From positions 1-64,000 of IMG/VR virus record IMGVR_UViG_3300032135_000005: a stretch of DNA of 64,000 nt. One strand, written 5' to 3'. The first letter of the stretch is position 1, and every line of letters starts with the position of its first letter. Source of the DNA: a virus. Taxonomy: Duplodnaviria > Caudoviricetes. The position numbers and the translations under genes were made by a program. The notes under the pieces were generated by a model that was not told the DNA's origin, ran no database searches, and worked only from the letters and a program-made list of their open reading frames with translations. Shown here piece by piece: positions 7,151 to 25,476 of the stretch.

Positions 7151-10100
7151 TTAATTTAACCATTTACTTCTTTCGTGTAATCCTTCTGGAGTAAAAGATA
7201 CTAAATGTTTATAAAAAGGAAGTGTTTTTCCTAATTTAACTTTTAATCTATTTTCACCTTTTCTCCATCCTGCTTCATATTCCTCTAAAGGATAGGCCAT
7301 CTGAGCAGTTAATTCATATAATGACTCTCCTAAACTTACTGTAGCAGCAGGAGATCTTAATAATTTTAAAGCTTCTGGTATACTTGCATAAGCACTTAAT
7401 TCTGCTCTAAATCTCAACAGTTCATATTGTGAAAATCTGAATGCTCCTAATGCAAGTCTATCTTCCCAATTGTCTCCATCGTAATCATCTTCTATTTCTT
7501 TTCCGATTTTCCCGAACATAACACTTGCTAAGGCTGTAACAGTAATCATAGAAGCTTCTACTAAGAACCTCCTTATATTAGCTTTTTCGTGCGGTGTCAG
7601 ATGTGCCCAATTTTCTTTTGCTACTGCTAAGTTAAACTTTTTTATATCTCTTGCAAAGCTAAACAAAGCTCTACCACCTGAACGATAAAATCCTTCAACA
7701 TCTTGCTCTAGCAAATGATTAGGACTAGCTTTCCCGTATCTTTTTTTAGCTGATTCTGCCATCCAACCTCTAAATTGTAGCAACATATCACCCAAGGCGT
7801 GTTGTTTTGCAGCACCCGCAGTCTTAGGACTATAGTTACCGTGAGATTTTCTATTAACTCCTCCTATTTTATCCCCTATTCTATTTTGTTGCTTCGTATC
7901 ATATTGAACTAATGAACCATCTTTCTCTTTAATGTAAACGTCATCAATTACTAATTTACCTTCCTTAAGAGAATGTACATTTAACAGAGTTCCTATTTCA
8001 GTTCCTGATTTATCGTATGTTTTAGTTGCATCAAGCATTGCTAGTCCAGATCTTACCTGAAGTAAATGCTCAGCACCTGAAGTTAGAAAGTATGCTGTAC
8101 TTGTTTTTAGTAGCCTTCTCATTCTAGTTCTCTCGGCAGTACTAATTTGCTCTCCACCATAATTCTGCAAGAGATCATAATGCTCTTCTATTAAATTAAC
8201 TATAGATGAAGGAGTTCTTGCACCTATATCTCCTAGCATATTTGAAGTATCTTTACGATAAAACGTACTAGCAGTCTTTAAATTTTTAAATGAATAGTAC
8301 TCTCCACCTGCGGCTTCCATTAAATTAGAATACTCTCCGTATGTTGTATTAGCTCCAGCTGCTGTTAAATTAAATGGTATTTGTAGTATTGATGTGGCTC
8401 TAGTTACCCCTCTAAGACCTTTATTAACATCTACATTAGTTCCTAATATATTTATAGCTCCTAAATCCTCTTGCCTCATTCCGTATAATTGCATATCATA
8501 CACTTTCATCAACTGTTTATATGCAGTAGACTCTGGACCTGTAACATCAGAGTTTCCATAAGTCCTTTTCTCAGAACCTACAACTTCAGCTATTGCATCA
8601 AACACGTGAACCTGCTCGTACTTCGCTGTAAAACTAGTAGCCATTACGTGAAAAGCTTGAAGATTACTAGCTACATCTCTAGAAATTACTTTAAGTAGTT
8701 CTGATTTTGCTTTTGCTTCAGCTGCTTCTTCTGCTAATATGTCTGCCTCTTCGTGAGATTTCCCCTGTTCAGTATAAATATCATATATTTTTTTATAAGC
8801 TTTTTTGTACTCAACAGAATTATATTTTTGTGTATAGAAAGTAGGGATTCTCTTGACAGGTTTTCCTGTAGAGTCTTTTAATTGCCCTTTTTCCATATCT
8901 AGATTAGTAGCTATAATTTTATTTCTCATGTTATCCTTTAGTACATTGTACTTGTCAGCCATATTACCTCCTTGAAGTAATTCTAATTCTGATCTCATAA
9001 CACTCGGCATACGCGTACCCATCTTAGATGAAGTAGGAAGACCCACATCAAGAGTTCTCATTGTATCGTTGTAGAACACAAGAAAGTCCATTAATGCCGG
9101 ACGTCCTTTTATAGTGGCCAATTTAGCTAACATCTTTTGATGTAGAGGTGTTGTATTGTCTGCTGTAACAGTAGTATCTATTACATGAAGTTCGTTGTTA
9201 TGTTCTACTAAGATATCATCAAATACTGTATCTGCTTTACCTGAGTACTCAGCTTCTACAGCTTCTAGTTTACCTTGTAGATCCTTACTAAAATCTATAC
9301 CTTGTCTACGTGCTTTATGATCAGTTCCTCTTAGTCGTTTAGACGCTTCAAATAAAAGTCTATCTTTACTATCTCCCATATGCATCACCTGGTACTCAGT
9401 CCAAGTTACATCCTGAGGTGCACTATCTAATACTGCTCTAATATCTTTTTTGGACCAAGTAGGGTCATCTTTATGAAACTCTTCAACTAAGAACTCCTTA
9501 GATTTAGCTACATAGAAGTTTTGTATATCATTAATTTTCTCTGTTGTTCCATCAACCATTTTAAAACTATCTGAAAACAAAGATGCTACTTCAGAAGAGT
9601 CTAATAGTTGAGATTTCATAGTTCCTATTATGTCATAACTTGATGCTGTTTTATTTAATCCAGAAAATGTTACAATATCTTCTCTTGTTACAGCCGGCTT
9701 CTTAAATGCTGTCTCTGCTATTTGATATAATGAATTAACGTGAGCAGATGCAGACTCAAAGAACTTAGGAATACTAGTGTTTACTGATTCTGTTTCTAGG
9801 ATTTCTAGTAATTTTTGAAGGTTAGCAACATGTGTGTTGTCTCCTTTGTACTGCAAGTACTCAATTCTGTTCTCTATTTTAGCAATTATTTTTGGAATAT
9901 TATTGACTAACTTCTTAAATATTTCAGCAGCGTAGTCAAGTTCTACTTTAGCGTAGTCAACTCCGTGAGTGTATCTACCTGCAGCTATATCATCGTATAT
10001 AGGTTCTCCATTAAGATCGTTTTTACCCTGATACTCTTCTACGAATGCATCAGTTTTTGTGTAAAAGTACATATCTATTGCATCATCACTAGTCACAGTA

Positions 10101-10171
10101 GCTTTTACTATATCTTTAAATAAGATAGAGTCTCTTCCATTAGGTGCTTTAAGATTTAATTCACAAGCCAT
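7151..10171 (-). CDS. Large virion cargo protein (downstream partner of the virion RNAP)
   Basis: 1006 aa, helical, follows the RNAP gene with a 1-nt gap. N-terminal C..K APNG..S.LF module resembles the RNAP N-terminus. Typical crAss-like giant-gene block. Confidence 0.65.
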   Translation of the reverse strand: MACELNLKAPNGRDSILFKDIVKATVTSDDAIDMYFYTKTDAFVEEYQGKNDLNGEPIYDDIAAGRYTHGVDYAKVELDYAAEIFKKLVNNIPKIIAKIENRIEYLQYKGDNTHVANLQKLLEILETESVNTSIPKFFESASAHVNSLYQIAETAFKKPAVTREDIVTFSGLNKTASSYDIIGTMKSQLLDSSEVASLFSDSFKMVDGTTEKINDIQNFYVAKSKEFLVEEFHKDDPTWSKKDIRAVLDSAPQDVTWTEYQVMHMGDSKDRLLFEASKRLRGTDHKARRQGIDFSKDLQGKLEAVEAEYSGKADTVFDDILVEHNNELHVIDTTVTADNTTPLHQKMLAKLATIKGRPALMDFLVFYNDTMRTLDVGLPTSSKMGTRMPSVMRSELELLQGGNMADKYNVLKDNMRNKIIATNLDMEKGQLKDSTGKPVKRIPTFYTQKYNSVEYKKAYKKIYDIYTEQGKSHEEADILAEEAAEAKAKSELLKVISRDVASNLQAFHVMATSFTAKYEQVHVFDAIAEVVGSEKRTYGNSDVTGPESTAYKQLMKVYDMQLYGMRQEDLGAINILGTNVDVNKGLRGVTRATSILQIPFNLTAAGANTTYGEYSNLMEAAGGEYYSFKNLKTASTFYRKDTSNMLGDIGARTPSSIVNLIEEHYDLLQNYGGEQISTAERTRMRRLLKTSTAYFLTSGAEHLLQVRSGLAMLDATKTYDKSGTEIGTLLNVHSLKEGKLVIDDVYIKEKDGSLVQYDTKQQNRIGDKIGGVNRKSHGNYSPKTAGAAKQHALGDMLLQFRGWMAESAKKRYGKASPNHLLEQDVEGFYRSGGRALFSFARDIKKFNLAVAKENWAHLTPHEKANIRRFLVEASMITVTALASVMFGKIGKEIEDDYDGDNWEDRLALGAFRFSQYELLRFRAELSAYASIPEALKLLRSPAATVSLGESLYELTAQMAYPLEEYEAGWRKGENRLKVKLGKTLPFYKHLVSFTPEGLHERSKWLN

Positions 10172-10172
10172 A

Positions 10173-13100
10173 TTAACATTTTTTTAGTTTACTTACAAGC
10201 TCCATATCGGAATGCTCTAGAAATTGAGTATATCTATCAGCTACATATTTGCTGAAAAATTCCTTGTACTCAGCCTCAAAATTATTTTTTTCCGCACTTT
10301 TTCTATGTGCGAAGGTAGCATTTTGTATTGCTCCTGCGTATATATCTTGAATGAACTCTATATCAGAAGCAGATTCTTTATTCTTTTCTAACCTTTCTAC
10401 AAGAACTTCTAAATACGCTTTTGCATCAGCATCATTATCTATTGTAAATTCATCTTCTGAGATAAGTTCTTTTATATAACTTCGTACCGTTTGAGTTTTA
10501 GTTACATCTTTAAAATTAGAGTGTTCATTTCCTACATTATTCATAACATTCTTGTTAACTTTACTTGCCGAATCACGTTTAGCTTTAGCTAATATACTTG
10601 CGTAAGGAACATTAAATAATGAATCTTTAGAGTGGTACTCAACAGCTAAGTTAGGTATACCCCTATCATCTTGTCTTGCGTAACCTTGCCCATCAAAGTA
10701 CAATAATCTCCATCGTTTATCTATGAATGATTTCGCGTATAAGGGTGGTTTATTTGTTTGAGTAAGACTCACATCATATATGTCGATAGGTAATGTACTT
10801 ACGTTATTAGCTAGATACATATGCATAAATGCACCTATACTATCAGTTGAATAAGAACTCTCGTCATTAGTTGTTTTCTGCAAGTCTCTAAAGAAATCAG
10901 GTAGTGAAACATTATTCGCGTCCGCTTTCTTTCCACCCATAAAATCATGATGTGCTCTAGGAGGTAAAAAATCCATGTAAGAATTTATAGACCTAGAATA
11001 CCCATAGAACATAATAGCATAATCAGCTAAACTTTTAGCTAATTTCTTTTCTATATCAGAATTTGAGTCCATTAAATCTTCATAGTAAGCAATCATTGAC
11101 TTAGCTTTCGTAGGAGTTATAGCTCTGGCCACAGTATTTCTAAACGTTACAAACTTCCTAGAACCTTCAGTTACTATGGTAAGGTTCTCAGTGAACCCAT
11201 TTTCCACTTCTGTATTTGACTTATTAATTTTTTCTCTGTAAGCTTTTAGTATGTTAGCAGTAGAATCTGGGTTAGTGCTATCAATCATACTTGTATAATC
11301 CTTAGCCATTGCCCTAGAAACTTCACTTGTATTATTGATAATAGATTTATCATTAGTTGCTACAAATGTATCGTAAGCTGCTAATACTTTAACTGCTTGA
11401 AATTCATCTAAGTACCCTAGAGTTTCAGTTGCATTTCTAATTACTTTTTGATATTGTTGTGTTGCTGTTGGAGATGTTTCCTTAAGAATTTGTAATGGTC
11501 TGTTTAAAAGATAAGTCTCCATAGTTGCCAAATGAGTGTTTATATATTTAGCGTGATCTATTTTTATCGCGTGAGCTTCATAATCTTTTTTACCTCTAAG
11601 TAAAGGTAATAGTTTTGTAGTTCCTGTTTCAAAATCAGAATGTTCTAGTACCCAAGAAGAAGTTCCTTCAATAGATGCAAGATTTTCATACTTAGCAATA
11701 ATTCCTGCGGTAGTTGTAGGAGTTCCAGAAGAATCTATATTTAATAAAGTTTGTGCTTTACTTAAAGCAGAACCGTTTGTGTATAATTCATTGAATACTT
11801 CTAATGATAATGTCATATCGTTAGGAGTTGTAGAATTCATTATACGCTTAGCATCATTCATTCCAAAATTTGGGAGTTTTTCAAAACCCTCTTCTGTATT
11901 AAGTTTTAACCCATACTTCCTAGCTATAGTACGAAGGGCTACTTCGTGAGCTTTAGTAGGATAATGCATTCTTTCTAACTTAGGATATAATGCTGCAAGT
12001 TCTTTTATTACTGGAGCATTTAAGAATGTAGTAGCGAACTCTATTCCGTGTCCTGCACTAATAAGTAATAATGCTGCTGATGCTGTATACTGATTGATAT
12101 TTAACTTACCTAATAATGGATCGTTTGCATTATCTAAGGCTGCATTTTGAATCTCAGCAATTTCATCTGATATCCTAGCTCTATATTTTCCTTTAACTAA
12201 GTTCCAAGTTTCTCCTAGTGCAACTTCTTCTGCATTTTCATTTACTCCTTTAATACGAATCGGTTTTACAAAGGCTGTACCTATATGTTTTGCTACTGCA
12301 TGACTAATAGATGCGATAGAAGATATTCCAATCATATCTCCACCTTGCATATTGTTATTTCTAAAGTCTTCTTGTGACTGTACTGATGACAACATTCCAG
12401 AAGTATCTCCATCTGTATTAGGTGGATAAAGTTCTGTTACTGCTCTAGTAAGTGAAGTAGTTCTGTTTGGAAGCAACAACTCTGAAACATAAGCAGGACT
12501 TGAAAGAACTGCTTTATGGTACTCCATAATGTAAGCTTGAGACCTATTTATAGTTGCTAGTTCTGTATTATAGTCTATCTCTTCAGCTAATGTTTCAATA
12601 TTTCCTTTTTCTAAACTATTTAGTTTATTTTGAAGATATTGAAATAATTTAGGTGCTTTTTCTTTAAGCATTGCTTTACCGGTACCTATCCCATCAGCAG
12701 GCATTACAATAGTTTTACCACTACTTTTAGCTAATTGTATTTGGGTATCTACATGATTTTTAAACCATTTAAGATCATTGTCTGTTAAATAAGAACTTGC
12801 AGAAGTGCCTCTATCTTTTTTAGTATCTATACCAATAGCATTTGATAGTCCTCTAATAACAGCTTGCGTCATTGATGGAACATGTTTAGTTACAGTTCTA
12901 TCATTAGTATTATCTCCAAATAAAAATACTTTATCTTCCTGAGACGCTACTTGTCGTCTATTCCAAAATCCTTTGAATATTTCTATTTTAGATTGTCCAA
13001 CAGTAGCATTATAATTAGAAATATCTTCATCTATAATATCTTCTAACATTTGTTTATAAGATTCAGCATGTCTATCTATAGTACTATCTAGTACATTAGC

Positions 13101-16100
13101 TCTGTCTACAACTTTTTCAAACTCAACCGCATTTAAAGTATTGTATCTTCCTAATTTTTTAATGCCTTCTTGTGTCCAACCTTCTTTATACCAAGTATTT
13201 TCATTTAACCCTTTAGTTATTTTAGTAATTTTTACAAGTATTTTTTTTGTTGTTCCATCAATAGATTTACCAAACATATAAGTATAAGAACCTTCTCTTA
13301 AATCATATTTCTTCAATTCAGAATCAGTTCTTGTTGTTCTTGTTCTAAATTTACTATCTATCATGTCAATAGAATAAGGATTTTTACCTAAGACATTTTT
13401 AACCTTTTGATTAGCTTCTTGTATAGTTCCATATTTCTCAATACCGCTTTGTAAATTTTGAGGTATTAATGTATTATTAGGTCTTAAATCTGCTTCTTTT
13501 TTAGCTTGATTATATTTATTAGTATCATCTTTAATTCTTTGTTTGGCTAATTCAGGATTCAAGTCCATTAATTTATACTGAATATTAGCATCAGGTAATA
13601 CTTTTTTAATAGCTTCAATAAAAGGTCTTCTTTTATCTTTAGTTAAGTTAGTAGTATCAAATATTACTTGTTTATTATTTTTTACCGCTTGTATAGCTCT
13701 TTTAGTGGCCTCTTCATAAATCTCTTTATCTTTAGATTTATCGTTCATATCTCCTGTAAACTTAACTCTCATTTCATCAGGAGAAATAACTACAAATTTA
13801 TTATTTTTATTTATAGATTTAATCCAAGTAGATTTACCACTACCACTTATACCAATAGGTAATATTACATCTGCTAAAGCTAACTCAGAACCTACCCGAG
13901 CCCCACTTGAACGGTAGCTTTGTTTTTTAAAGACTCCTTTGTCTACACCAAATTTGTGCATTTCAATATACACTTTATCAATATCAAAATCGGATCCGGA
14001 CTGCTCTACAATTTCCCCTGGAACTTGAATACTTGCTCCAGCTTCTGGTGGTAAGAAATCTTTGATAGTAGCTGCAAGCATAGAGTTCTTTCCTTGAGTA
14101 GGAATTCTGTATAGAACTATATCTGCAAGTCCAGCTTCTTTTACTTTAGCAATACTAATTTCTCCATTTTCAGATACTTGTCTAAATAATTGAGCATAAT
14201 TCTTATCGTTAGATTCTTGTATAAGTTTATTCCTGTGGTCAGTTAGCTCAACCTTAATAGCAGCAGGTGATAGTCTTTTATTTAAAGTCTTTCTAAAAAT
14301 TTCTACTCTAGCGTTGATATTTTTCATACCAGCTTTAGTTCTTTCTTTAGAAATCTCTCTAAGCCTATTTGTAAAGTATTGAGAACTCACTCTAACCTCA
14401 GCAGGTTTAATAGTGTAGTTTTTCGTTTCTCCTCTAGCTATGTCTTCAGCTGCAGCTAACAAAGCATCTCCTGTAAGTTCTACTGCTCCTTTCTTTATAC
14501 CTACAAACTTCAGATCACTATTTACAGAAATTCCTTCTTCTGTATACATAGTTCCCATACTAGAAACTTGAACAGCTGAGTACCCAGGAAGTTTCATTTT
14601 AGATACTTTCTTTCTAAACTCTGCTGCTATGGAAGAGTCAATAGCACTTTTAATAGTAGGGTAGTTTGCAGGTAGCAAAGAGTCTCCTTCTTCATTTAAA
14701 GTACGTAGGGCGGCTTGATAGTACTCAGCATTTTTAAATGGGTTGTACTCAAGCTCTCGTAGTATTGTATTTATGACCCTCTCCATATTTACATTACCGT
14801 TCATATCTTTATATTGGGATATGACCCCTTCTCCTATTGAAGATACTACATTAGATATTGCTTTATTGTAATTATCTAGAGCTACTGTACCGGTCTCTCC
14901 TAAAATATCTGCATTAGGATTATGATTGGCCATAATAAGTTTTCTTATCTGAGAACCAAATCTAGCTGCTGTTTTCTTAGTTACTGGAGTCACCTGAGGA
15001 ACCCTCATTCCATCATTGTCTAAAGTAATATGTTGTGCTGTATCTAGGTTTTTTATGTCTGTAACGTTCCTAATTCCTACCTTAACTGCAGATTCCATTA
15101 CAACTTCATCTGCTCTACCACTTCTAAGTTCTCTAGATATTTTTGCTAGTCCTGGAAATGCTTCATCACCGTTAGAGTTCTTACGTTCAAACAATGTAGG
15201 TATAGCTGGAAATACTGCATACTTTAATGACAGAGGTGCCATCGCATTATGTTGAGCTGATACTTTTTGTACTTTAAAGAAGAAATGTTTTAGAACTTCT
15301 AGCGTAGCATCTGAGGTAATTTCTTTTGTGTTGTCTTTAGCCCATTCATTTAATTGATCTACCATTTCTACTAGTTCATCTGTATGAATTCCTCTAGCAG
15401 CCATAGATTGTAAGTACCTATTTACACTTACAAAACCCTGTCCATCAGCTAAGTCTATACCTTCTGCATTCATAAACCCATCTCCTAATACATTGTATAC
15501 TTTACGTAATTCAGCTTTAATGTTAGCTTCTTTAAGTATTTTTAGTTTAAAAGTTTTATCTACTCCTGAATGAAACATCTTAGTGTTATGTATGATTTCA
15601 TTATTCATATCTGTTTCTAAGTCGCCTGACTCTCTCATAGTAGAGTTTATAGCAAACTTAACTCCGGGAGTAAATGGTAATCTAAATCTTTTATTTATAT
15701 TGTTTTTCTGTTCTAGTGTAGTTCCTTCTTTATAAAATGCAGGGTCTCCAGCATAAAACAATTGTTGTTCGTACCCATAAATAAAGTTGTTAGCAAGAAA
15801 CGTATCCATTTCTGCACTAGTTAAATTATTAAGGTATTTATCTTTAGATTTAAAAGAGTTGTTATCATTTTTAACAAATACTCCTTTATCTGTATAGTAC
15901 TTAGCATCTGATTCCAACATCTTAATAAACTCTTTCTCTGCTGTTGGGTAAAGTTTAGTTACTGTTGCTTCAATATTTGACTCACTTAGGTTAGCAGCAT
16001 TAATGTCTACTGCATTTAAAGACTGGAATAAATTAAATTTAGACGCATTCCCTGGAGACTTATTTGTTTTAGAATAATTTTTAAATCCTTCTAAGTTAGG

Positions 16101-18248
16101 GGATTCAATTATCCTAGCAAGTTCTCCTGCAATTTGGTCTTTAATCCATCCTGAAATATCTGCTGGAGCAATCTTTCCATCTACAACTACTTTCTGTGTA
16201 GAAGTACCTTTTTTGTAATTTAATTTAGGTACAGCTATAACTGTAAGGTTTCCATTATCCCCTTGAGTAGGGCTCATTGCATTGAAGTACCCTTGCATAG
16301 TATTTGGTCTGAAGAAGAACTGCATTCTAGATGTCAATGCATCATAGGTAGATAATTGTCCGTAAGTTCTTCCAGACTTAGCTTTTTGATTGTTTGTTAA
16401 TGTATCTAAAGATTGCACACGAAAATTTACTTTGTGAGGTCCATCTTCTGTAAGTACATTATATAAAATACTTTTGGCATACATAGGGTCACTCCCATAA
16501 TCATCTTGAGCCTCCTGAACTTCTTGTAGTCTACGCCACATATCCTGAGCTTCTGTGCTCATATTAAATGCATGAACTATTGTTCCTCTTCCTGATAAGT
16601 GAGCACCAACGTGCATATCTGTTCTAGATTCTGCTACTGCATCTGCTAGTATATTAAGGTATTTATTTTCTCCGAATGCATCTGTATCCTTAGCAAATAC
16701 ATCATTTCCAGTATAAATCTGATCCCTTACTATTTTAGCTAGCATGGTTTTGATAATTTCACTAGGAGATTTCTTAGCAGTACTATCACTAAATCTACGA
16801 GGATTGGAATGTACTAAATCTATAATAGCTTTGATATCTGATTTCCCAATTTTTGTAAGCCCGGCAAGTTCAAATTGTCTAGCTGCCTCTTCTAAATGAG
16901 TGTTCTCAAAATTATTTAATCCTTCTATATTCTTATTAGGTTCTGTTTTTCTCTTCCGCGGAATAATTTCTCCTTTCTTATTTCGTTTAACAGGTAAAGC
17001 TTGAACTGTACTTAAGTATTTACGTAGAACTTCTCTCTTCTTATCAAGAGACTTCACTGGACTTTGCTGTACATCATCTATAGTCTCACTCCACGCATCC
17101 TTAAGTTTACTCTTAACTTTAGCGTTATTGGCATCCGTCACTAAAAGAGTAGTTGCATCTTTTTCTGCAATATTAATCATATCATAATCCGCCTTAGCTA
17201 ACGTAAATAAAGCTACTGCTAGTCTATCATAGTCTCCTAAGTTAGGAACATAAACAGGTTTCTCCTCCATAAGAACCTCGTATAGAGGAATAAGTTCAGG
17301 AGTAGTAGTTAAAGAGTTCTGAAGTTTCATAGCCATTTCATCCATAGACTGAACTCCCTTGGTTACTTTAAATAACTTAGAAAGAATATCTTCTGCACTG
17401 CTAGGTCTGAAAGAACCTATTGCTGTAGTTTCATATATATTTTGTCTGTTGTATACTAAATCATCTGCAGTTTTATTAGACCACTTGTAGTTCTTTTTAA
17501 CTTTTCGTAATTTTCTTAGGGCTATTTTTAATGCGGGTAGTACTGAGTTCATAGTAGGCATCTCTAAAATATCCATAGAGTAGATAAGTTCACTTGCTGT
17601 CTCGGCTTCTTCTGCACTGTAAGTACCTTCTCCACTAGCCTCCAATGCATCTTTGTATGCTTCAGATTGGTCTATCTCTATTTGATCTTTGCCTATTCTA
17701 ATATGAATTCCTATATCTCTAAGTTTTACTCCAAGAGGACCAAGAATTTCATCTTGTCCTATGAAGTAAGGCATATCTACAATAGCTTTTTTCATTAATG
17801 CGTAATGCTCTTCTGAGTACTGGTCAGCAGCTTTACTACCAAGTTCTAGCCATATTTTGTTCCTTACTGCAGTAATAACTTTCGGAAGAAGTGTAGCATC
17901 TTTTGTAAGAGCTTTAGTGTCAATTCCTCCTAGTGTGTACATACTTTGAGTTCCCTGGATAGTACTGAAAGCTTCTACGATTTCATCAACTAAAAAGTCC
18001 ATAATATCATCCTGCTCCCTTCTGTCTTTAAACCCTTCTAGTTTATACTTAGGACTGCTTATGTAATTTTCTTGACTAACTTCTCCTTGCTCATTTTTCC
18101 CATACATTTTAATGTAGGCTTCCTTATTTGAAGATAATTCTAAGTAAGTTTCTAGGGCTTCCCCAGATTCCATAGTACTATGCAGAGCTTCAAATAGTTT
18201 TGAAGATTCTCCATTTTCTAACAATACTTGCTCTACTCGACATCCCAT
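10173..18248 (-). CDS. Virion-packaged single-chain RNA polymerase (phi14:2 gp66-like)
   Basis: 2691 aa. Catalytic GSDFDIDK motif (DFDID at 13977..13991) preceded by YRIPTQGKNSM; also ADGQG, ESAVKVG and FGSQIRKL motifs characteristic of crAss-like two-barrel RNAPs. Confidence 0.9.
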   Translation of the reverse strand: MGCRVEQVLLENGESSKLFEALHSTMESGEALETYLELSSNKEAYIKMYGKNEQGEVSQENYISSPKYKLEGFKDRREQDDIMDFLVDEIVEAFSTIQGTQSMYTLGGIDTKALTKDATLLPKVITAVRNKIWLELGSKAADQYSEEHYALMKKAIVDMPYFIGQDEILGPLGVKLRDIGIHIRIGKDQIEIDQSEAYKDALEASGEGTYSAEEAETASELIYSMDILEMPTMNSVLPALKIALRKLRKVKKNYKWSNKTADDLVYNRQNIYETTAIGSFRPSSAEDILSKLFKVTKGVQSMDEMAMKLQNSLTTTPELIPLYEVLMEEKPVYVPNLGDYDRLAVALFTLAKADYDMINIAEKDATTLLVTDANNAKVKSKLKDAWSETIDDVQQSPVKSLDKKREVLRKYLSTVQALPVKRNKKGEIIPRKRKTEPNKNIEGLNNFENTHLEEAARQFELAGLTKIGKSDIKAIIDLVHSNPRRFSDSTAKKSPSEIIKTMLAKIVRDQIYTGNDVFAKDTDAFGENKYLNILADAVAESRTDMHVGAHLSGRGTIVHAFNMSTEAQDMWRRLQEVQEAQDDYGSDPMYAKSILYNVLTEDGPHKVNFRVQSLDTLTNNQKAKSGRTYGQLSTYDALTSRMQFFFRPNTMQGYFNAMSPTQGDNGNLTVIAVPKLNYKKGTSTQKVVVDGKIAPADISGWIKDQIAGELARIIESPNLEGFKNYSKTNKSPGNASKFNLFQSLNAVDINAANLSESNIEATVTKLYPTAEKEFIKMLESDAKYYTDKGVFVKNDNNSFKSKDKYLNNLTSAEMDTFLANNFIYGYEQQLFYAGDPAFYKEGTTLEQKNNINKRFRLPFTPGVKFAINSTMRESGDLETDMNNEIIHNTKMFHSGVDKTFKLKILKEANIKAELRKVYNVLGDGFMNAEGIDLADGQGFVSVNRYLQSMAARGIHTDELVEMVDQLNEWAKDNTKEITSDATLEVLKHFFFKVQKVSAQHNAMAPLSLKYAVFPAIPTLFERKNSNGDEAFPGLAKISRELRSGRADEVVMESAVKVGIRNVTDIKNLDTAQHITLDNDGMRVPQVTPVTKKTAARFGSQIRKLIMANHNPNADILGETGTVALDNYNKAISNVVSSIGEGVISQYKDMNGNVNMERVINTILRELEYNPFKNAEYYQAALRTLNEEGDSLLPANYPTIKSAIDSSIAAEFRKKVSKMKLPGYSAVQVSSMGTMYTEEGISVNSDLKFVGIKKGAVELTGDALLAAAEDIARGETKNYTIKPAEVRVSSQYFTNRLREISKERTKAGMKNINARVEIFRKTLNKRLSPAAIKVELTDHRNKLIQESNDKNYAQLFRQVSENGEISIAKVKEAGLADIVLYRIPTQGKNSMLAATIKDFLPPEAGASIQVPGEIVEQSGSDFDIDKVYIEMHKFGVDKGVFKKQSYRSSGARVGSELALADVILPIGISGSGKSTWIKSINKNNKFVVISPDEMRVKFTGDMNDKSKDKEIYEEATKRAIQAVKNNKQVIFDTTNLTKDKRRPFIEAIKKVLPDANIQYKLMDLNPELAKQRIKDDTNKYNQAKKEADLRPNNTLIPQNLQSGIEKYGTIQEANQKVKNVLGKNPYSIDMIDSKFRTRTTRTDSELKKYDLREGSYTYMFGKSIDGTTKKILVKITKITKGLNENTWYKEGWTQEGIKKLGRYNTLNAVEFEKVVDRANVLDSTIDRHAESYKQMLEDIIDEDISNYNATVGQSKIEIFKGFWNRRQVASQEDKVFLFGDNTNDRTVTKHVPSMTQAVIRGLSNAIGIDTKKDRGTSASSYLTDNDLKWFKNHVDTQIQLAKSSGKTIVMPADGIGTGKAMLKEKAPKLFQYLQNKLNSLEKGNIETLAEEIDYNTELATINRSQAYIMEYHKAVLSSPAYVSELLLPNRTTSLTRAVTELYPPNTDGDTSGMLSSVQSQEDFRNNNMQGGDMIGISSIASISHAVAKHIGTAFVKPIRIKGVNENAEEVALGETWNLVKGKYRARISDEIAEIQNAALDNANDPLLGKLNINQYTASAALLLISAGHGIEFATTFLNAPVIKELAALYPKLERMHYPTKAHEVALRTIARKYGLKLNTEEGFEKLPNFGMNDAKRIMNSTTPNDMTLSLEVFNELYTNGSALSKAQTLLNIDSSGTPTTTAGIIAKYENLASIEGTSSWVLEHSDFETGTTKLLPLLRGKKDYEAHAIKIDHAKYINTHLATMETYLLNRPLQILKETSPTATQQYQKVIRNATETLGYLDEFQAVKVLAAYDTFVATNDKSIINNTSEVSRAMAKDYTSMIDSTNPDSTANILKAYREKINKSNTEVENGFTENLTIVTEGSRKFVTFRNTVARAITPTKAKSMIAYYEDLMDSNSDIEKKLAKSLADYAIMFYGYSRSINSYMDFLPPRAHHDFMGGKKADANNVSLPDFFRDLQKTTNDESSYSTDSIGAFMHMYLANNVSTLPIDIYDVSLTQTNKPPLYAKSFIDKRWRLLYFDGQGYARQDDRGIPNLAVEYHSKDSLFNVPYASILAKAKRDSASKVNKNVMNNVGNEHSNFKDVTKTQTVRSYIKELISEDEFTIDNDADAKAYLEVLVERLEKNKESASDIEFIQDIYAGAIQNATFAHRKSAEKNNFEAEYKEFFSKYVADRYTQFLEHSDMELVSKLKKC

Positions 18249-18249
18249 T

Positions 18250-21200
18250 TTAACAAACTATTTTAATTCTTCCTTTAGCTTTTAAACTTTGTAAAGTTAC
18301 ATTATTTTTCGGCGATAATTGTTTCGTAAACTCATTTACTGATTGTATTCCACTAAGAGAAGCTTTGAACCACGTTTTACTTGGAGTTTTTGTGAACCCA
18401 CCTTCCATTATTTTAGTAAATACATCCGTAACTACATCAGAAGATCTAGTACCTTTAAACCAATCAATAATACTAGCAAAGAACTTCTTAGCTTTATCAG
18501 CATAAGTTTCTTTCTTATAGGTTTTTTGAAATTCCTCGAATTCCCCTGCAAACTTTTCTTCAAGTTCTAATGACCACTCTTTTTCTCCTCGCTCTTTAGC
18601 CATCTCAGCTCTTTCAGAAGGAGTTAAATATAAATCAGCAACGGCGTGAAAAGCTTCGTGGAAAATTGCTCCTTGTTTAGCACCTTTCACTACGTAAGCA
18701 ACTCCTTGGTTATAAGCACCTATTGCTTGAGCACCAAATCTTTTATGCATATAAGCTACATCCTTCACTACATTAACTGGAATTTTAGGTAGTAACTTAT
18801 TAATCTGAGTTACTTCGTCATTAAATTGTTCATTAGTAAATACCTCATCTTTACTAGCTAGTTTAAATGGTGTAGTGTTCTCGTCCAAGAACTTATTCAT
18901 TACAGCATTAACATCTGCGTTAGCATCTGTCTCTGCCATAAGAGTTATGGTCTTAGTAAGTTTAATAGCCTCAGCAGGAGTTATAATTCCTTTAGCTATT
19001 GCGTTCTCAAATTGAGCTACGGCACCTGACTCTACTCCCATTTCTTCTAGAGTCTCTTGAGCTCCTTGGGGTTCTTGGCTTTCTTGAGTAGTATCAGTAT
19101 TTTGAACTATACTCTTATTTGTAGGAGTTACTGGAGTACTTTTAGTAGTTCCAACTACATTATTCTGACGTATTACTGTACCTCCTTTAGTAGTAGCGGG
19201 TCTAACAGATTTAGTCTGGGTAGTAGGCTTTACAGTTTTTGCTTTGTCTAACCTAAGTGGTCCAACTTCATCTAATCCTAGTGCAGGCACAAGAGGTAAT
19301 ATTCTAGCTGTTCTAGCTTTCGTATCCCCGGCTGAATAATCTACTTTAACTGGAACTACAAATAGTTTTTTATCTGCAAGTATTCCATAAGTATTATTCA
19401 GTATAATCCTATAGGCTGATAATTGTTTTTGATGTTTAATTCTATTAGAATCTCTTACACCTTTTTGTCTTTTACGTTTTGGGGTAACACCATCAGCTTC
19501 AAAAACACCTTTAACAGTTTTCCAAATAGTTGTATCTTCATATCTATTATCAGTAGTAGGATCAAATAACATAGTTTTAATGTCGTAGATACGAACTGCT
19601 CCTTCATTATCATAAGTAAGTAAATCTATTGTACCAGCTCTCTTTGTAGTCTTATCGAAAAGAACCATCCCGGTAGATACTACTGTCTGTCCTGCAATAC
19701 TTTTCTTAAATGCTTGCAATGAGGTTACAAATTCATCAAAGACTTCTTCAGTTATGGCATAACTACTATTCCAAACTAAAGAGGATTCTGTAGGGTCAAA
19801 GAAATCACGTATCATATTATCAATACCAGTTCCTATTACTTGACTGCTTTTTAATTTTGGAGTTATTACATCAGGATTTTCTGAAAAGATATCAGTAACC
19901 CTATCATATTTAGTATAGTTTCCACTCGCATCCTTATCATTTACATTTACATACCATTTAAACTCTTTATCTAAACCTACAAGTTTACTATCTTCACTAA
20001 GTCCCTTAATATTAGGAAGTTCATTTTGTATAGTTTCAAGTACCGTTTTAACTTCTTCAACTCGTTCTTTTTGAAGTGAAGTGCTTGGACTTTTAGTAGC
20101 AGGTTTAACTGGTTGAGATGGAGTATCTGCAGTAGAGAACCTATCTGCATACATCTCAGTTTCTAAACTAATTACTACATCCAATGCATCAATCATCTCT
20201 TCATACGCAGAGGTTAATTTTGATTGCCCTGTTTGTTGAATAGTTCCTGTTCTGTCCCCAGGAGCTACTGTAGATGCTATGTGAACTGCTTTACTTGTGT
20301 ACTTACTTCTTGTTAAAGAGTACACGGTAGCTTCTGATTTAATTACAGAAGTAGGTGAAGGATTATCTTTTATAGCTTTTACTACATCTCTAAGTAATTC
20401 TATGTGGCCAATCTTTTGTTCACTTGAAGCTACGTTCTCCCTGGCTGCTATTTTAGTATTAAGAAGACTTAACATATCCTGAAAATCTTGGTCAGTATAC
20501 GGAACTGCATCTAAAAATGCATCGTTCATAGCTTTTATGTACTCAACATCAACAGGCCCATCAGGATGCACATCTAATAGTTTATCTCTGTATTCTATAA
20601 CACCATCAAACCCTTTGGCAATGTTACCGGCTCTTTTAGAGTTCCCTACTAGTTTAGCGAAGACATTTTTAGTGTAATGTAACCCTAAAGCATCTGAAGC
20701 TACAGATAAAGAGTGTAAAGAGTTATCCGTTCCTGAATCATTTTTCTCTGCTTCATTTTCCTCTCCATAAGCTCTCTTTTTAAGATAAGTTGTTCTAGCC
20801 TCTAATGTATTTACAGCTCTAGTGGCAGACTCATGTTGAATAGTACCGGGTCTCGCTTTTTTTAGTTTGACTCTCGCGTCAGCTAATTGACGAAATGCTC
20901 CTTTTTCTTTAAATAGATTAGCAGGATACATTTGTACTCCTTTGCTTTTTTCACTAAATCTTACTACTATAGTTCCTTTAGGAGTGGTACTCATAACTAC
21001 TCCATCTCCGTGAACTGGACTCCATATTTTTTCATGTCTAGCAAATTCTGATATACCCTCAGCTTGAGTGAACTTACTATCTACAGTAGCTTTTCTTACT
21101 GTGTATAAATTTAATTCTTTTGATTTTACTTTAGCTTGAATTTCCTGTAGTGCAAGAACTCCTCTAGCCATTAAAGGTACTTGAGAATAATTCTCTAATG

Positions 21201-24200
21201 GTAAAGCGTTTAGACTATCCTCAATAGTTTGAAGTTCTTGGGATTTCTCCTCAGTAACCTCTTCCATAGTATCTTTAATTATAGTCGAAACATCTTCTTT
21301 GATTCCGAAAGATGCTGCTATGTCTTGAAACGCATTCACCATTCCGGTTTCTGTAGTTTCATTACTCACTACTTTCATGCTAATCTCAATAGAGTCTGGA
21401 TCTAGTATAGTGTCTATCTTATCGTTGAAGTCACTTATAGTTTCATCAGAAGCATCCTTTTCGTATATAGCTTGTTTAGGTGCTTTGTCTTCTCGTACTT
21501 TTTCTAATTTTTTATACTCGTTTACTCCGTATGCAATGTCATCCCCAAGCAATTGGATATCAGCAGAAGCTCCTACGTATACATTATTAAGATTTACATC
21601 AGAAACTAATCCACTATCATCTACATACTCTTGCATTGCCTGAGCTCCATCTACTATATCCTCATTAAACAAAGTATCCATAGACATACGAGAACGTTTT
21701 CCTTCAAGTATATCCATAAATTCTTCAGCGTTATCTAAAGGATTTATCACTTTCCATCTATGCGGTCTAAGTTCATCCCTAACTTCTATGGCCACTACAT
21801 ATTGATTTGTACTCTCAGATACAGCGATAGTAGGTTTAAAGTAATCTGGACTTACCAGTGGTCGTCCTTTACCATCTACTGAGGTTCTCTCAGTACCGTC
21901 TTCATTCTTTCCTTTTATAAATTTCTGCTTATTCCTTTTAGAAATTACTATATGCTTTAAAATAGAATTCTTAAATGAATCCCAGAATTCAGTCACGGCT
22001 ACATCATCAGCTTTTTTATTTTTATCTGTAGCAGCTTTCCTTTTAAGACTACGTGCAAGTCTTCTCTGCTCTTCTGCAGAGTTTACTTCATTACTTGACT
22101 CGGCTTCTCTTTTATATTGCTCGTCTAGTGAAATCTCGTCAGCAATCTCGTCCTGCATTAATTCCTCAACGTGTTGTTGCCACTCTTCCACCACGTCATA
22201 AGCTTTATTATCCATACCTTGAGAACTTGGAATTTCTCTTAGGTTAGAACTCCTAAATGCTATAGGTGTGACCTCTCCATTTAGTCCTTTTATAAGTGCA
22301 TAAGTATCACCCGGCGTCATTCTATGATAAGGAATTTCTACATGTACCCCATCTATTAGAATACTACTCTCTTTGTAAATAGTACCATCCATAGCTCTAG
22401 CGGCATTTACATTGTCAACTCCATTAGCTCCTTTAGTTTGAGCTAGTATTAATGAATTGTTAATAAGTAAGTCAGATGATAAATTATTAAATTTACCGAT
22501 TGGAGTGTATATAATATTACCTGCTGAGTCTCTGTTCTTAGAAAAGTTTCCCCGGTTACTGTAATGAGCTTTTACCATTCCAGTTATTACATCTCCTTTT
22601 GCTAATGCTTTTATTAAATCTTCGTGTGCTAAATTATAGAACCTATTTAGCCTAGTAAGTTTTACTTCCCCTTCCGGAGTATTTGTCATTACATCTATGA
22701 AGGTATTATTTCTACGATCTGTGTTTAATTTTAAAGTTACAGGATACGGTTCTTTGAAAGGTTTGTTTATCAAATCCATTCTGTATTCATTCAACCATTC
22801 AAAGCCTGGTTTACCTATACTAGTTTCGTGTATGTTTACAGAATTAACTATACCTTCAGATACATTATCCAATCGTCTAGTATTGTATGCATAGTTATTA
22901 GGTTTAAGAACTGTATCAATAGTTCTATAAGATTTCCAATCAGTACTGTGATGACTATACTTTCCATCAGCTCTTACAATTCCTTGAAGAACTCCGTGTT
23001 TAATCCAAGAATTATCTTTAAGTACAGTCTGCTTACTAGCTTCTTTGTACCTGCCTTTCTCCATTACTACCTCTTTGATAACTGGCATATTAGGAGCTTT
23101 ACTATCTGTACCTTTATAATTTTGATACATAACTCTAAACAGTCTACCATTTTCTGCTTGAACTATATCATGCTCTGTATAATTTCTTACTACTCCTTCT
23201 GAATCTATAGAGGTAAAAGTTTTCCCTTCTCGTACTTGAGCGTACTCACCTTTCTCTGTATGTTCTTTAACTGCAGCATCCCTATCATTATTCATAGTCT
23301 GAAGTTCTTCAGCTGTAACTCTAGGTTTAGTGTTCTTTATGGTAGAGAACTCAGTAAAGCGACTTTCCTTAACTGCATCTGTTTTGACATCTTCCTTTTT
23401 ATTAGACTCTTCTAGTGCATCAGGAATTCCTTTGACTGCATCTTGTTGCTCTTCTATAAATTTCTTTTGTCCTTCAGGAGAAACCAGGTAATCAAATTGT
23501 TTGCCTAAGTTAATAGAAAGCTTTTCAAATTTCTTTATTCTTTTTATGTCCTGCTTAGTGTCCTTATACTCATCTCTGTTCTGAATAAAATCTTGAAGGT
23601 TCTGAGTTTCTTTTGCTTCTTGTGATTTTAAAGTAGTTACTTGAACAGGAGATAGCTTATCAAATCGTTCAGGAGCTTTATCGGTAAAAGCCAATTTATC
23701 TAAATCAACAGTTCTATTAGGATACTTTTGTTTTAACAAAGATTCTAACTTAGTCATATTTTCTATGGCTCTTGTAGATACTTCTGTTATTGCTTTATCT
23801 GTTTTAACAGAAACCATTCTGTTATAAACTATTCCTCCTAAATTAGCTTTACCTTTATGTTGTTTAATATACCCTTCGGCCTTATCTAATGTGTCTAAAA
23901 ATTCAATAGCTACCTCTTTATAATCAGAGTCAAATCCTTTAACATTATCTGCTCCTTCTTCTGCATCTCTTACTAGTTCAATATCTTTTCTAAGGCTATC
24001 TATAGTTCCGTATTCAACCTGACGAGCCACTTCATGCATTAAATGAGATTGACTTATAAGCTCAGATTCAGTTAGGTCTCCTTTATTAACTGCATCTGTA
24101 AATGCATCATTATACTTTTTAAATGTATCGAAGTTATTTTGTGCAAGTACTTTACCTAGAGTAAGACGTTCTTGCTGAGTATTATAATCTGCTTTTTGTT

Positions 24201-25476
24201 GTTTTAATTGTTTACCCATCATTGGACGTTGGATAAGAGCAAATTGAATTGGTCCACCTACCACACCTAATGATCCTGCGTGAACTGCTCTGTTAGATAA
24301 CATAAGTTCTGCAGTTCTAGTCCAGTAGTCTGAACTGTACTCATCTTTACTTTGAGTGCCACCTAATGTATCTACATCATGTAGTTGCTCCATTTGAATC
24401 ATTTCCTGATACACGTTTTCTCCAAACGCAGTAGGAGAACCTTTCTTGATTAAATCAAATGCTTGTCTACCAAATGTAGGGTCTTTAAGCATTACATTAG
24501 TTCTTCTACGTTTAAAGATTCCACCAAATTTAAGGTAAGCTGTTGCAGTTAAAGCCATATTTAATGCAACTACATCTTGTGCTTCATTGTTGGCCATCTT
24601 CTGAGCTTCAAATCTAGTAAGCATACCAGGTTTATCCCCTATTCGTCCTTCAAGATGTTCCATAGCTAACTTATATGTATCCGCTGCCATCATTTGTCCC
24701 ATAAAGAAGTTAGTTGTAGCTGATGTAGCTAAAGGGCCAACAAAAGCTTTTGTAGATCCACCTGCCATTCCTAACGCTTCATCCGCAAATCCTGCTATAG
24801 CTTTAAAATTTTTCATAGCTCCTAATGAAGATACTAGTTTTGCAGCTCCCAGTCCAGTGATACCAAATCCAACAGCAGAACTAATAGCTCCTTCTAAAGA
24901 ACTCCATTTGAATATTTTACTTGCTATACTATTAGAATCAGTTTCTTCGTCATATATTTTAAATGCATTAGATTGTCTTAACCCATCTTGAGTTTCTTTC
25001 ATTATATCAGTCCACCAGTTTCCTGATAAATCTTCTGTGTCTGTAAATAGATTTGTATAAGTATCTAAATCTCCTACATAACCTGCTTGCTCCATAGCAA
25101 TCAATCCACCTTGAAGTATTCCACCTCCTATAGCTTTAAGTGCTTTTACACCTCCACTCTGATTTCTAGCTCTATTAGAATCAACAGATTCGTATAATCC
25201 TCTGCCGACGTCTAAATCCATATCTCTGCCCCCTTGTTTGGTAGAACGTTGCATAGCAGCTTCTTGAGTAAGACCTGTTACATAATCTTTTACATCTGCT
25301 TGACTTTGTAAATCTGGGCCAACGTACACAGCTTTCTCTACATCCAATCCACTAAGATCGAGAGTAGGTTTCTTAGGTTTACCCTTTGTAAGATTCTCAG
25401 TAAGAGACTCAGCTTCCGTAGGTTCTGTGTTTAACATTGTTAAGTCCGGGTCTATTTCTTTGTTGGTCTCTGTCAT
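18250..25476 (-). CDS. Giant virion cargo protein with PD-(D/E)XK nuclease and zincin metallopeptidase domains
   Basis: 2408 aa. AGTIDLLTYD...IYDIKT...QLSAY nuclease motif near 19400-19650; IFHEAFHAV HExxH motif near 18645-18670; Gly/Ala-rich hydrophobic N-terminal segments. Confidence 0.75.
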   Translation of the reverse strand: MTETNKEIDPDLTMLNTEPTEAESLTENLTKGKPKKPTLDLSGLDVEKAVYVGPDLQSQADVKDYVTGLTQEAAMQRSTKQGGRDMDLDVGRGLYESVDSNRARNQSGGVKALKAIGGGILQGGLIAMEQAGYVGDLDTYTNLFTDTEDLSGNWWTDIMKETQDGLRQSNAFKIYDEETDSNSIASKIFKWSSLEGAISSAVGFGITGLGAAKLVSSLGAMKNFKAIAGFADEALGMAGGSTKAFVGPLATSATTNFFMGQMMAADTYKLAMEHLEGRIGDKPGMLTRFEAQKMANNEAQDVVALNMALTATAYLKFGGIFKRRRTNVMLKDPTFGRQAFDLIKKGSPTAFGENVYQEMIQMEQLHDVDTLGGTQSKDEYSSDYWTRTAELMLSNRAVHAGSLGVVGGPIQFALIQRPMMGKQLKQQKADYNTQQERLTLGKVLAQNNFDTFKKYNDAFTDAVNKGDLTESELISQSHLMHEVARQVEYGTIDSLRKDIELVRDAEEGADNVKGFDSDYKEVAIEFLDTLDKAEGYIKQHKGKANLGGIVYNRMVSVKTDKAITEVSTRAIENMTKLESLLKQKYPNRTVDLDKLAFTDKAPERFDKLSPVQVTTLKSQEAKETQNLQDFIQNRDEYKDTKQDIKRIKKFEKLSINLGKQFDYLVSPEGQKKFIEEQQDAVKGIPDALEESNKKEDVKTDAVKESRFTEFSTIKNTKPRVTAEELQTMNNDRDAAVKEHTEKGEYAQVREGKTFTSIDSEGVVRNYTEHDIVQAENGRLFRVMYQNYKGTDSKAPNMPVIKEVVMEKGRYKEASKQTVLKDNSWIKHGVLQGIVRADGKYSHHSTDWKSYRTIDTVLKPNNYAYNTRRLDNVSEGIVNSVNIHETSIGKPGFEWLNEYRMDLINKPFKEPYPVTLKLNTDRRNNTFIDVMTNTPEGEVKLTRLNRFYNLAHEDLIKALAKGDVITGMVKAHYSNRGNFSKNRDSAGNIIYTPIGKFNNLSSDLLINNSLILAQTKGANGVDNVNAARAMDGTIYKESSILIDGVHVEIPYHRMTPGDTYALIKGLNGEVTPIAFRSSNLREIPSSQGMDNKAYDVVEEWQQHVEELMQDEIADEISLDEQYKREAESSNEVNSAEEQRRLARSLKRKAATDKNKKADDVAVTEFWDSFKNSILKHIVISKRNKQKFIKGKNEDGTERTSVDGKGRPLVSPDYFKPTIAVSESTNQYVVAIEVRDELRPHRWKVINPLDNAEEFMDILEGKRSRMSMDTLFNEDIVDGAQAMQEYVDDSGLVSDVNLNNVYVGASADIQLLGDDIAYGVNEYKKLEKVREDKAPKQAIYEKDASDETISDFNDKIDTILDPDSIEISMKVVSNETTETGMVNAFQDIAASFGIKEDVSTIIKDTMEEVTEEKSQELQTIEDSLNALPLENYSQVPLMARGVLALQEIQAKVKSKELNLYTVRKATVDSKFTQAEGISEFARHEKIWSPVHGDGVVMSTTPKGTIVVRFSEKSKGVQMYPANLFKEKGAFRQLADARVKLKKARPGTIQHESATRAVNTLEARTTYLKKRAYGEENEAEKNDSGTDNSLHSLSVASDALGLHYTKNVFAKLVGNSKRAGNIAKGFDGVIEYRDKLLDVHPDGPVDVEYIKAMNDAFLDAVPYTDQDFQDMLSLLNTKIAARENVASSEQKIGHIELLRDVVKAIKDNPSPTSVIKSEATVYSLTRSKYTSKAVHIASTVAPGDRTGTIQQTGQSKLTSAYEEMIDALDVVISLETEMYADRFSTADTPSQPVKPATKSPSTSLQKERVEEVKTVLETIQNELPNIKGLSEDSKLVGLDKEFKWYVNVNDKDASGNYTKYDRVTDIFSENPDVITPKLKSSQVIGTGIDNMIRDFFDPTESSLVWNSSYAITEEVFDEFVTSLQAFKKSIAGQTVVSTGMVLFDKTTKRAGTIDLLTYDNEGAVRIYDIKTMLFDPTTDNRYEDTTIWKTVKGVFEADGVTPKRKRQKGVRDSNRIKHQKQLSAYRIILNNTYGILADKKLFVVPVKVDYSAGDTKARTARILPLVPALGLDEVGPLRLDKAKTVKPTTQTKSVRPATTKGGTVIRQNNVVGTTKSTPVTPTNKSIVQNTDTTQESQEPQGAQETLEEMGVESGAVAQFENAIAKGIITPAEAIKLTKTITLMAETDANADVNAVMNKFLDENTTPFKLASKDEVFTNEQFNDEVTQINKLLPKIPVNVVKDVAYMHKRFGAQAIGAYNQGVAYVVKGAKQGAIFHEAFHAVADLYLTPSERAEMAKERGEKEWSLELEEKFAGEFEEFQKTYKKETYADKAKKFFASIIDWFKGTRSSDVVTDVFTKIMEGGFTKTPSKTWFKASLSGIQSVNEFTKQLSPKNNVTLQSLKAKGRIKIVC

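Follow-up and report, generated by a model that had tools for sequence, protein, structure and literature searches.

The virion RNA polymerase (RNAP) of a divergent crAss-like phage and the two large cargo proteins encoded on either side of it probably form a linear head-to-tail chain, running from the first protein through the RNAP to the last, in which cysteines at the facing termini provide the links, likely as disulfides. The genes lie in the first 64,000 nucleotides of IMG/VR record IMGVR_UViG_3300032135_000005 (this whole stretch is hereafter called the window), where Pfam matches to capsid and muzzle proteins mark the late module of the phage. That terminal cysteines act as pairs across consecutive cargo junctions is strongly supported by the sequences, since the pairs are conserved across the order Crassvirales, follow gene boundaries that have moved and are missing wherever a peptide bond joins the two proteins. 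No phages are more abundant in the human gut than Crassvirales, and the packing and injection of their protein cargo of ~0.7 MDa is a standing question (PMC10172136, PMC13434306).

The three minus-strand open reading frames (ORFs), encoding 2408, 2691 and 1006 residues, are consecutive, with 1-nucleotide gaps between them (Table 1). Translation of the summed 6105 residues gives four cysteines, each at a facing end, which is exactly what a first-pass annotation of the window had claimed. The 2408-residue protein has its sole cysteine as its last residue (ending ...KIVC, TGT codon at 18253-18255). The RNAP has only residue 3 (MGC, codon 18240-18242) and the last residue, 2691 (ending ...KLKKC, codon 10176-10178), and the 1006-residue protein has only residue 3 (MAC, codon 10163-10165). 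The outer ends of the trio, at the N terminus of the first protein and the C terminus of the last, lack cysteine, and translation likewise bears out the claim that the two cargo proteins encoded upstream, of 508 and 1448 residues, contain none. If four cysteines were placed at random in 6105 residues, the probability of finding one at most three residues from each of the four facing ends would be ~1.4e-12. Composition alone, by our own estimate from base counts, predicts ~2.8% cysteine codons against the 0.07% observed in the trio, and we reject chance and base composition as the source of the pattern. The window itself is not cysteine-free: its overall content is 0.41%, and several genes have 1-4.6%, some early ones among them lying at 2-4.6%.

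The 2691-residue protein carries the catalytic DFDxD motif of crassvirus virion RNAPs as DFDID at residue 1420, within a segment, G1418-S-D-F-D-x-D-K1425, that does not vary among 12 sequences. The protein matches crAss001 gp50, and gp50 itself hits 6VR4, the structure of phi14:2 gp66; to known Crassvirales RNAP genes, tblastn alignments cover short stretches only, at 24-47% identity. The 1006-residue protein matches crAss001 gp49 and phi14:2 g065 (phmmer E-values of 1.6e-44 and 2e-25 in a small local database). The 2408-residue protein matches crAss001 gp47 weakly (tblastn E-value of 3e-6 over 87 residues), and fused relatives bridge the two, as both are matched at the same region of the fusions. 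The three proteins are thus homologous to gp47, gp50 and gp49, the gp47 match being the weak one. Gene order agrees: within the late structural module, the trio lies downstream of the genes for the muzzle and for two smaller cargo proteins, an order also seen throughout loci L001-L007. In the cultured crassviruses crAss001 (gp47, gp50 and gp49) and phi14:2 (g067, g066 and g065), the corresponding blocks are homologous, lie in the same order, have DFDxD in the middle protein and share the terminal cysteines. Both sets are virion proteins: those of crAss001 are cargo identified by mass spectrometry (Bayfield 2023, PMC10172136), and those of phi14:2 are recorded as such, from tandem mass spectrometry, in the annotation of the genome record. 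The phage in the window differs from both in being distant, at the identities given above, and in an extra insert in its RNAP that combines a kinase with DUF7831. A PDB sequence search with the RNAP returned only kinase-like chains, through this insert, and a related-locus search of IMG/VR with the RNAP returned no relatives.

The insert, of ~460 residues, lies directly past DFDID (residues ~1440-1900) and comprises an AAA_33 P-loop kinase (1461-1573) and a DUF7831 domain (1757-1874). It is absent from all 11 RNAP orthologues, which are 2171-2493 residues long. Other Crassvirales cargo proteins carry the same kinase and DUF7831 module, at 60-87% identity, in N-terminal, internal or C-terminal position; from these differing positions the module looks mobile, moving between cargo proteins. 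The first chain protein has its own recognizable feature, an invariant zincin-like HExxH motif (HEAFH, residues 2273-2277) in its C-terminal domain, ~130 residues before the terminal cysteine. In some lineages the domain bearing HExxH is found at the N terminus of the RNAP protein. A preprint by Drobysheva et al. places a zincin-like domain in phi14:2 gp65, whereas here it belongs to the first chain protein.

We sampled the window and 17 further loci (18 loci in all), which range from close orthologues to phi14:2, crAss001, crAss002, IAS virus, cr3_1 and cr271_1. Cysteine counts in orthologous triplets, the check that the first-pass annotation had set, show terminal cysteines conserved across the order. 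Protein searches found 11 RNAP orthologues (P0002-P0012, 34-53% identity), all 11 with exactly two cysteines, one at position 3 and one in the last three residues. All 12 members of the 2408-residue family (P0131-P0142, including 11 relatives) have a single cysteine, the last residue, and all members of the 1006-residue family (P0121-P0128, seven relatives) have a single cysteine at position 3. On six orthologous contigs (34-53% identity), the three genes are adjacent and each triplet has exactly four cysteines, all at the junctions; one of the six contigs ends within the third gene. The layout reported at first pass for both junctions, TGT-TAA-(A/T)-ATG-Gnn-TGT, is true of the window and varies in relatives. 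On the six contigs the gap ranges from an overlap to 4 nucleotides, the C-terminal cysteine can have 1-3 further residues after it and its codon may be TGC instead of TGT.

The same arrangement extends to cultured and more distant phages. In phi14:2, g067 (1797 residues) has its sole cysteine as its last residue, g066 (the RNAP, 2180 residues) has cysteines 3 and 2179, and g065 (1421 residues) has only cysteine 3. In crAss001, the sole cysteine of gp47, Cys2339, is at position -3 from the C terminus, gp50 has cysteine 5, Cys2404 at -9 and an internal one, and the sole cysteine of gp49 is residue 5. The gene for gp47 lies on the strand opposite to that of gp50 and gp49, and the protein still keeps its cysteine. 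IAS virus is similar to crAss001, with the first protein on the opposite strand, more internal cysteines and ambiguous bases that interrupt the gp50-type gene. The idea of the first-pass annotation that cargo is covalently linked in gene order stands in part: the comparisons strongly support terminal cysteines acting as pairs across junctions, but the pairing tracks protein order and not strictly gene order, given the opposite-strand first proteins of crAss001 and IAS virus. The Intestiviridae phages cr3_1, cr271_1 and crAss002 encode a gp47-type protein with a C-terminal cysteine followed by a gp50+gp49 fusion of 4245-4620 residues that starts M-S-C and has no C-terminal cysteine; crAss002 fits only if translation of its annotated gp33 starts at Met33, which reads MSC.

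Two published gene models deserve comment. The annotated start of gp33 in crAss002 (L012, NC_055828, 15666-28403) is probably 32 codons too far upstream, as Met33 gives the canonical M-S-C of its relatives. In IAS virus (L013, NC_049978, 9579-18561), the annotation divides the gp50-type gene into two coding sequences, of 837 and 2159 residues, one of them named 'molybdenum carrier', and ambiguous bases lie near the end of each; the two are probably one gene split by sequence quality.

Across the 18 loci, separate chain proteins meet at 30 junctions, all 30 of which have a cysteine on both sides, one of them relying on the corrected crAss002 start and another lying in the ambiguous, low-quality sequence of IAS virus. 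None of the assessable outer chain ends in these loci has a cysteine. For comparison, among 206 other ORFs of 100-899 residues from the same 19 sequences, a cysteine falls in the first seven residues in 1.9% and in the last five in 4.9%.

Fusions of the cargo genes show what happens to the cysteines when a junction disappears. We typed 149 retrieved proteins and six neighbours from fetched contigs by BLAST against the reference gp47, gp50 and gp49. Proteins that are gp47-type only have a C-terminal cysteine and no N-terminal one (14 of 14), those that are gp49-type only have the reverse (12 of 12), and both terminal cysteines are present in 89 of the 95 that are gp50-type only. Among 23 gp47+gp50 proteins, 16 have a C-terminal cysteine only, and 10 of these 16 are otherwise cysteine-free across 3000-4550 residues. 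The remaining seven comprise five with both terminal cysteines, one cut at a contig end and one with an N-terminal cysteine only. Four of the five with both (P0016, P0017, P0038 and P0075) read as shifted breakpoints; the protein with the N-terminal cysteine only, P0103, which has 20 internal cysteines, is an exception that the fusion rule does not explain. The gp50+gp49 fusion P0106 (4294 residues, locus L010) has a single cysteine, at position 3, and is preceded by a 1985-residue protein whose sole cysteine is at -2. The triple fusion P0114 (4424 residues, L009) has no cysteine at all, and the next genes lie on the other strand. The fusion P0104 (4547 residues, L011) has its sole cysteine as its last residue and is followed by a 319-residue protein with cysteines at 3 and -2, then by a GIY-YIG endonuclease gene and a gp49-type protein with cysteine 3. 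Elsewhere, gp50-type proteins have a homologue of the 319-residue protein as their N-terminal module, so that L011 (23648-25395) holds a free-standing module with a cysteine at both ends. The intervening GIY-YIG homing-endonuclease gene, which encodes four internal cysteines, may be a mobile element at a chain breakpoint.

Boundaries between the genes have also moved. A hidden Markov model (HMM) built on the C-terminal domain of gp47-type proteins locates it within the fusions and, in other lineages, at the N terminus of the RNAP protein, which means that the break between the genes has shifted; there the cysteine pair sits at the new break. In locus L019 the successive proteins have 1305 residues (cysteine last), 2135 residues (cysteines 6 and -4) and 1021 residues (cysteine 4). 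In L018 they have 2128 residues (cysteine -4), 4009 residues (cysteines 3 and last) and 2414 residues (cysteine 3), with four cysteines in 8551 residues. HMMs of 250 residues built from the RNAP N terminus, the RNAP C terminus and the N terminus of the 1006-residue protein found no match in the fused proteins of other lineages, so the residues that replace a cysteine pair cannot be mapped there, and the gp47-type C-terminal domain alone is traceable. Judged from these sequences, the two junction cysteines behave as one unit that replaces a peptide bond. A different pairing, of the N-terminal cysteine of the RNAP with its own C-terminal one and of the first protein with the last, is less parsimonious because the two cysteines lost in any kind of fusion are precisely those that face each other.

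In the mechanism that we propose, the C-terminal cysteine of each protein would pair with the residue-3 cysteine of the next, and the two links, most likely disulfides, would make a linear chain of ~6100 residues inside the virion. Functionally, this tethered chain would correspond to the cysteine-free single polypeptide of some relatives. Purging internal cysteines would prevent side links and loops and keep the chain unbranched, in proteins that have to cross the tail and the host envelope in a partly unfolded state. Reduction in the cytoplasm would cut the links, freeing the RNAP and its partners. We infer both the role of the tether, which may be co-packaging, stabilization of the packed cargo or ordered ejection, and the timing of link formation.

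The link in crassvirus virions would most likely be a disulfide, the simplest chemistry and one made plausible by three precedents: the disulfides of crAss001 virions, a disulfide in cyanopodophage A4 and the suppression of cysteines in N4-like phages. In crAss001 virions, inter-protein disulfides occur both in the tail and at the portal vertex, according to a study that analysed reduced as well as untreated samples by LC-MS/MS (PMC10172136). In the cryo-electron microscopy structure of the pre-ejectosome of A4 (Anabaena phage A-4L), gp27 Cys1715 is disulfide-bonded to gp26 Cys5 (PNAS 2025, PMC12002296). We find in the A-4L genome that these are each protein's only cysteine (gp27 has 1717 residues and gp26 has 1114) and that the two genes are adjacent. 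A4 has the same features as the junctions of the window, namely large ejection proteins from adjacent genes with lone cysteines near facing ends; unlike the window, it has one link, two proteins and no RNAP. The A4 paper describes one bond in one structure, and no conserved rule, multi-link chain or covariation with fusion (PMC12002296). Searches with phmmer found no match between A4 gp26, gp27 or gp28 and the crassvirus cargo set, so the resemblance lies in how the systems work and not in descent.

The third precedent concerns the absence of cysteines elsewhere. The first-pass annotation was right to name the N4 virion RNAP as a known case of cysteine avoidance: the ejection proteins of Schitoviridae (N4-like phages), including the single virion RNAP of ~3500 residues, show cysteine suppression, which has been attributed to passage through the envelope (PMC11445570). 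The giant, nearly cysteine-free proteins of the window resemble them, and the cysteine-free triple fusion of 4424 residues is close to the single-polypeptide solution of N4. The Schitoviridae proteins are essentially cysteine-free, termini included, whereas those of the window keep exactly the conserved junction cysteines and so are not of the cysteine-free type.

A more far-reaching version, which we put forward tentatively and regard as the less probable one, treats the whole as one covalent thread. The cargo would be a pseudo-polyprotein of 6,000-8,500 residues, joined by disulfides, packaged with fixed 1:1:1 stoichiometry and pulled through the tail from N to C terminus in a set order; reduction in the host cytoplasm would dismantle it and be the switch that frees and activates the RNAP, fusion and cysteine tether would be interchangeable, and the code may extend to A4.

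Among alternatives to a disulfide chain, the one that survives best, while still unlikely, is that the paired thiols join the proteins by other means, for example by sharing a metal ion (zinc or iron) in a hook-like site built from the cysteines of at least two chains. Such a bridge explains the same covariation with gene fusion, and it could assemble in a reducing cytoplasm, sidestepping the problem of oxidation there and in the oxygen-free gut. However, each junction offers just two cysteines, with no conserved histidine or cysteine near the termini; A4, with the identical signature, has a disulfide, and crAss001 virions form disulfides.

Less likely again is that each terminal cysteine acts independently, anchoring its protein to the portal or the capsid interior or forming homodimers, with no head-to-tail chain. 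The capsid must retain its cargo somehow, and a 199-residue protein encoded just downstream of the muzzle gene in L019 (2166-2765) ends in ...KLKMKC with no obvious partner bearing an N-terminal cysteine adjoining, as an independent role would allow. Independent roles nevertheless fit poorly with cysteine pairs that come and go together: for all fusions with neighbours that were read, both junction cysteines are present together or absent together, C-terminal cysteines equal N-terminal ones in number in 18 of 18 loci, and outer ends never carry one. Neighbouring virion proteins of the phage in the window are, moreover, nearly cysteine-free and would offer few partners.

It is quite improbable that the cysteines mark processing or ligation chemistry, either as sites of proteolytic maturation or through splicing-like ligation into a true polyprotein. 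The preprint of Drobysheva et al. suggests that the fused forms are polyproteins that are cleaved, and the zincin-like HExxH domain of the first protein lies beside its C terminus. Against this, Pfam finds no intein-like or ligase domain at the termini, and the fused forms lack the junction cysteines, so that any cleavage there would not depend on them. We give almost no credence to, and reject, a nucleic-acid signal in which TGT-TAA-N-ATG serves termination-reinitiation or frameshifting and the cysteine codons are by-products: the two junctions of the window do share a layout with a 1-nucleotide gap, but the signal lies in the protein and not in the DNA, because spacing, distance to the stop and cysteine codon all vary among orthologues and the gp47 genes of crAss001 and IAS virus, on the opposite strand and away from gp50, still end in cysteine, and in L011 a GIY-YIG gene separates two chain members.

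Several points weigh against the chain of disulfide-linked proteins that we favour. About six of the 95 gp50-type proteins lack one terminal cysteine in the called gene, which may reflect truncations, undetected fusions or true exceptions. Some lineages tolerate internal cysteines (7-10 in IAS virus, 15 in cr271_1 and 33 in P0065), so internal cysteines are not purged everywhere. The cytoplasm in which virions assemble is reducing and the gut habitat of crassviruses is free of oxygen, which leaves the timing of oxidation, or its occurrence, in doubt. The published crAss001 disulfides come from purified virions (PMC10172136). A complex prediction for the N-terminal 420 residues of the RNAP with the C-terminal 209 residues of the 2408-residue protein, run without alignments, gave a score of 0.01, which counts neither for nor against the chain.

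Genes next to the chain share its low cysteine content. The tail and cargo block on the minus strand (window positions 1-31359), with 12 ORFs and ~10,400 residues, has just six cysteines, so that cysteine depletion in this phage reaches past the three chain proteins. We take the 508-residue protein to be the putative counterpart of crAss001 gp46 from its position, its size and the similarity of their starts (MANLF and MANF). The 1448-residue protein itself has no Pfam match; at the position of its gene, four orthologous loci show lysozyme or glucosaminidase matches, one of them weak and one faint. Elsewhere in the window, a 1116-residue protein (45576-48926, minus strand) occupies the position of the large terminase, adjoining an 816-residue ORF taken as the portal gene, and contains a LAGLIDADG domain at residues ~489-575; from this homing-endonuclease domain and its position, it is probably an intein-bearing terminase.

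Table 1 Positions of the chain genes, their junctions and neighbouring features in the window
Feature	Positions	Strand	Remarks
First chain member, 2408 residues	18250-25476	-	Counterpart of crAss001 gp47 and phi14:2 g067
Middle chain member, virion RNAP, 2691 residues	10173-18248	-	Counterpart of crAss001 gp50 and phi14:2 gp66
Last chain member, 1006 residues	7151-10171	-	Counterpart of crAss001 gp49 and phi14:2 g065
Junction 1, TGT TAA A ATG GGA TGT	18240-18255	-	C-terminal cysteine of the 2408-residue protein facing RNAP Cys3
Junction 2, TGT TAA T ATG GCT TGT	10163-10178	-	C-terminal cysteine of the RNAP facing Cys3 of the 1006-residue protein
508-residue cysteine-free protein	25479-27005	-	Outside the chain; candidate counterpart of crAss001 cargo protein gp46
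1448-residue cysteine-free protein	27013-31359	-	Outside the chain; position of cargo protein gp45
Muzzle protein crAss_MUZ, six cysteines	31362-35288	-	Pfam match; ties the block to the tail and cargo synteny of crassviruses
Crass_capsid, crassvirus major capsid protein	40106-41557		Pfam match

A full-text literature search found no paper mentioning these cysteines of Crassvirales cargo proteins, and the word cysteine is absent from the preprint of Drobysheva et al., which notes the fusions and suggests cleavage. The novelty lies in a conserved, multi-link chain that has the RNAP as a member and varies together with gene architecture; the type of link already has one published example, in A4. 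A conserved rule from which the joined protein ends can be predicted provides a concrete hypothesis on how the cargo is packed and injected. It explains the near absence of cysteine from the cargo proteins and recasts the giant fused 'polyproteins'. The rule is also of use in annotation: at least one published start, that of crAss002 gp33, is corrected by looking for M-x-C, and the terminal-cysteine pattern identifies chain members despite sequence divergence. Taken with A4, the rule hints at a broader principle for the ejection proteins of podophages. If that principle is true, facing terminal cysteines on otherwise cysteine-free ejected proteins may be a marker of ejection chains in unrelated podophages, A4 among them.

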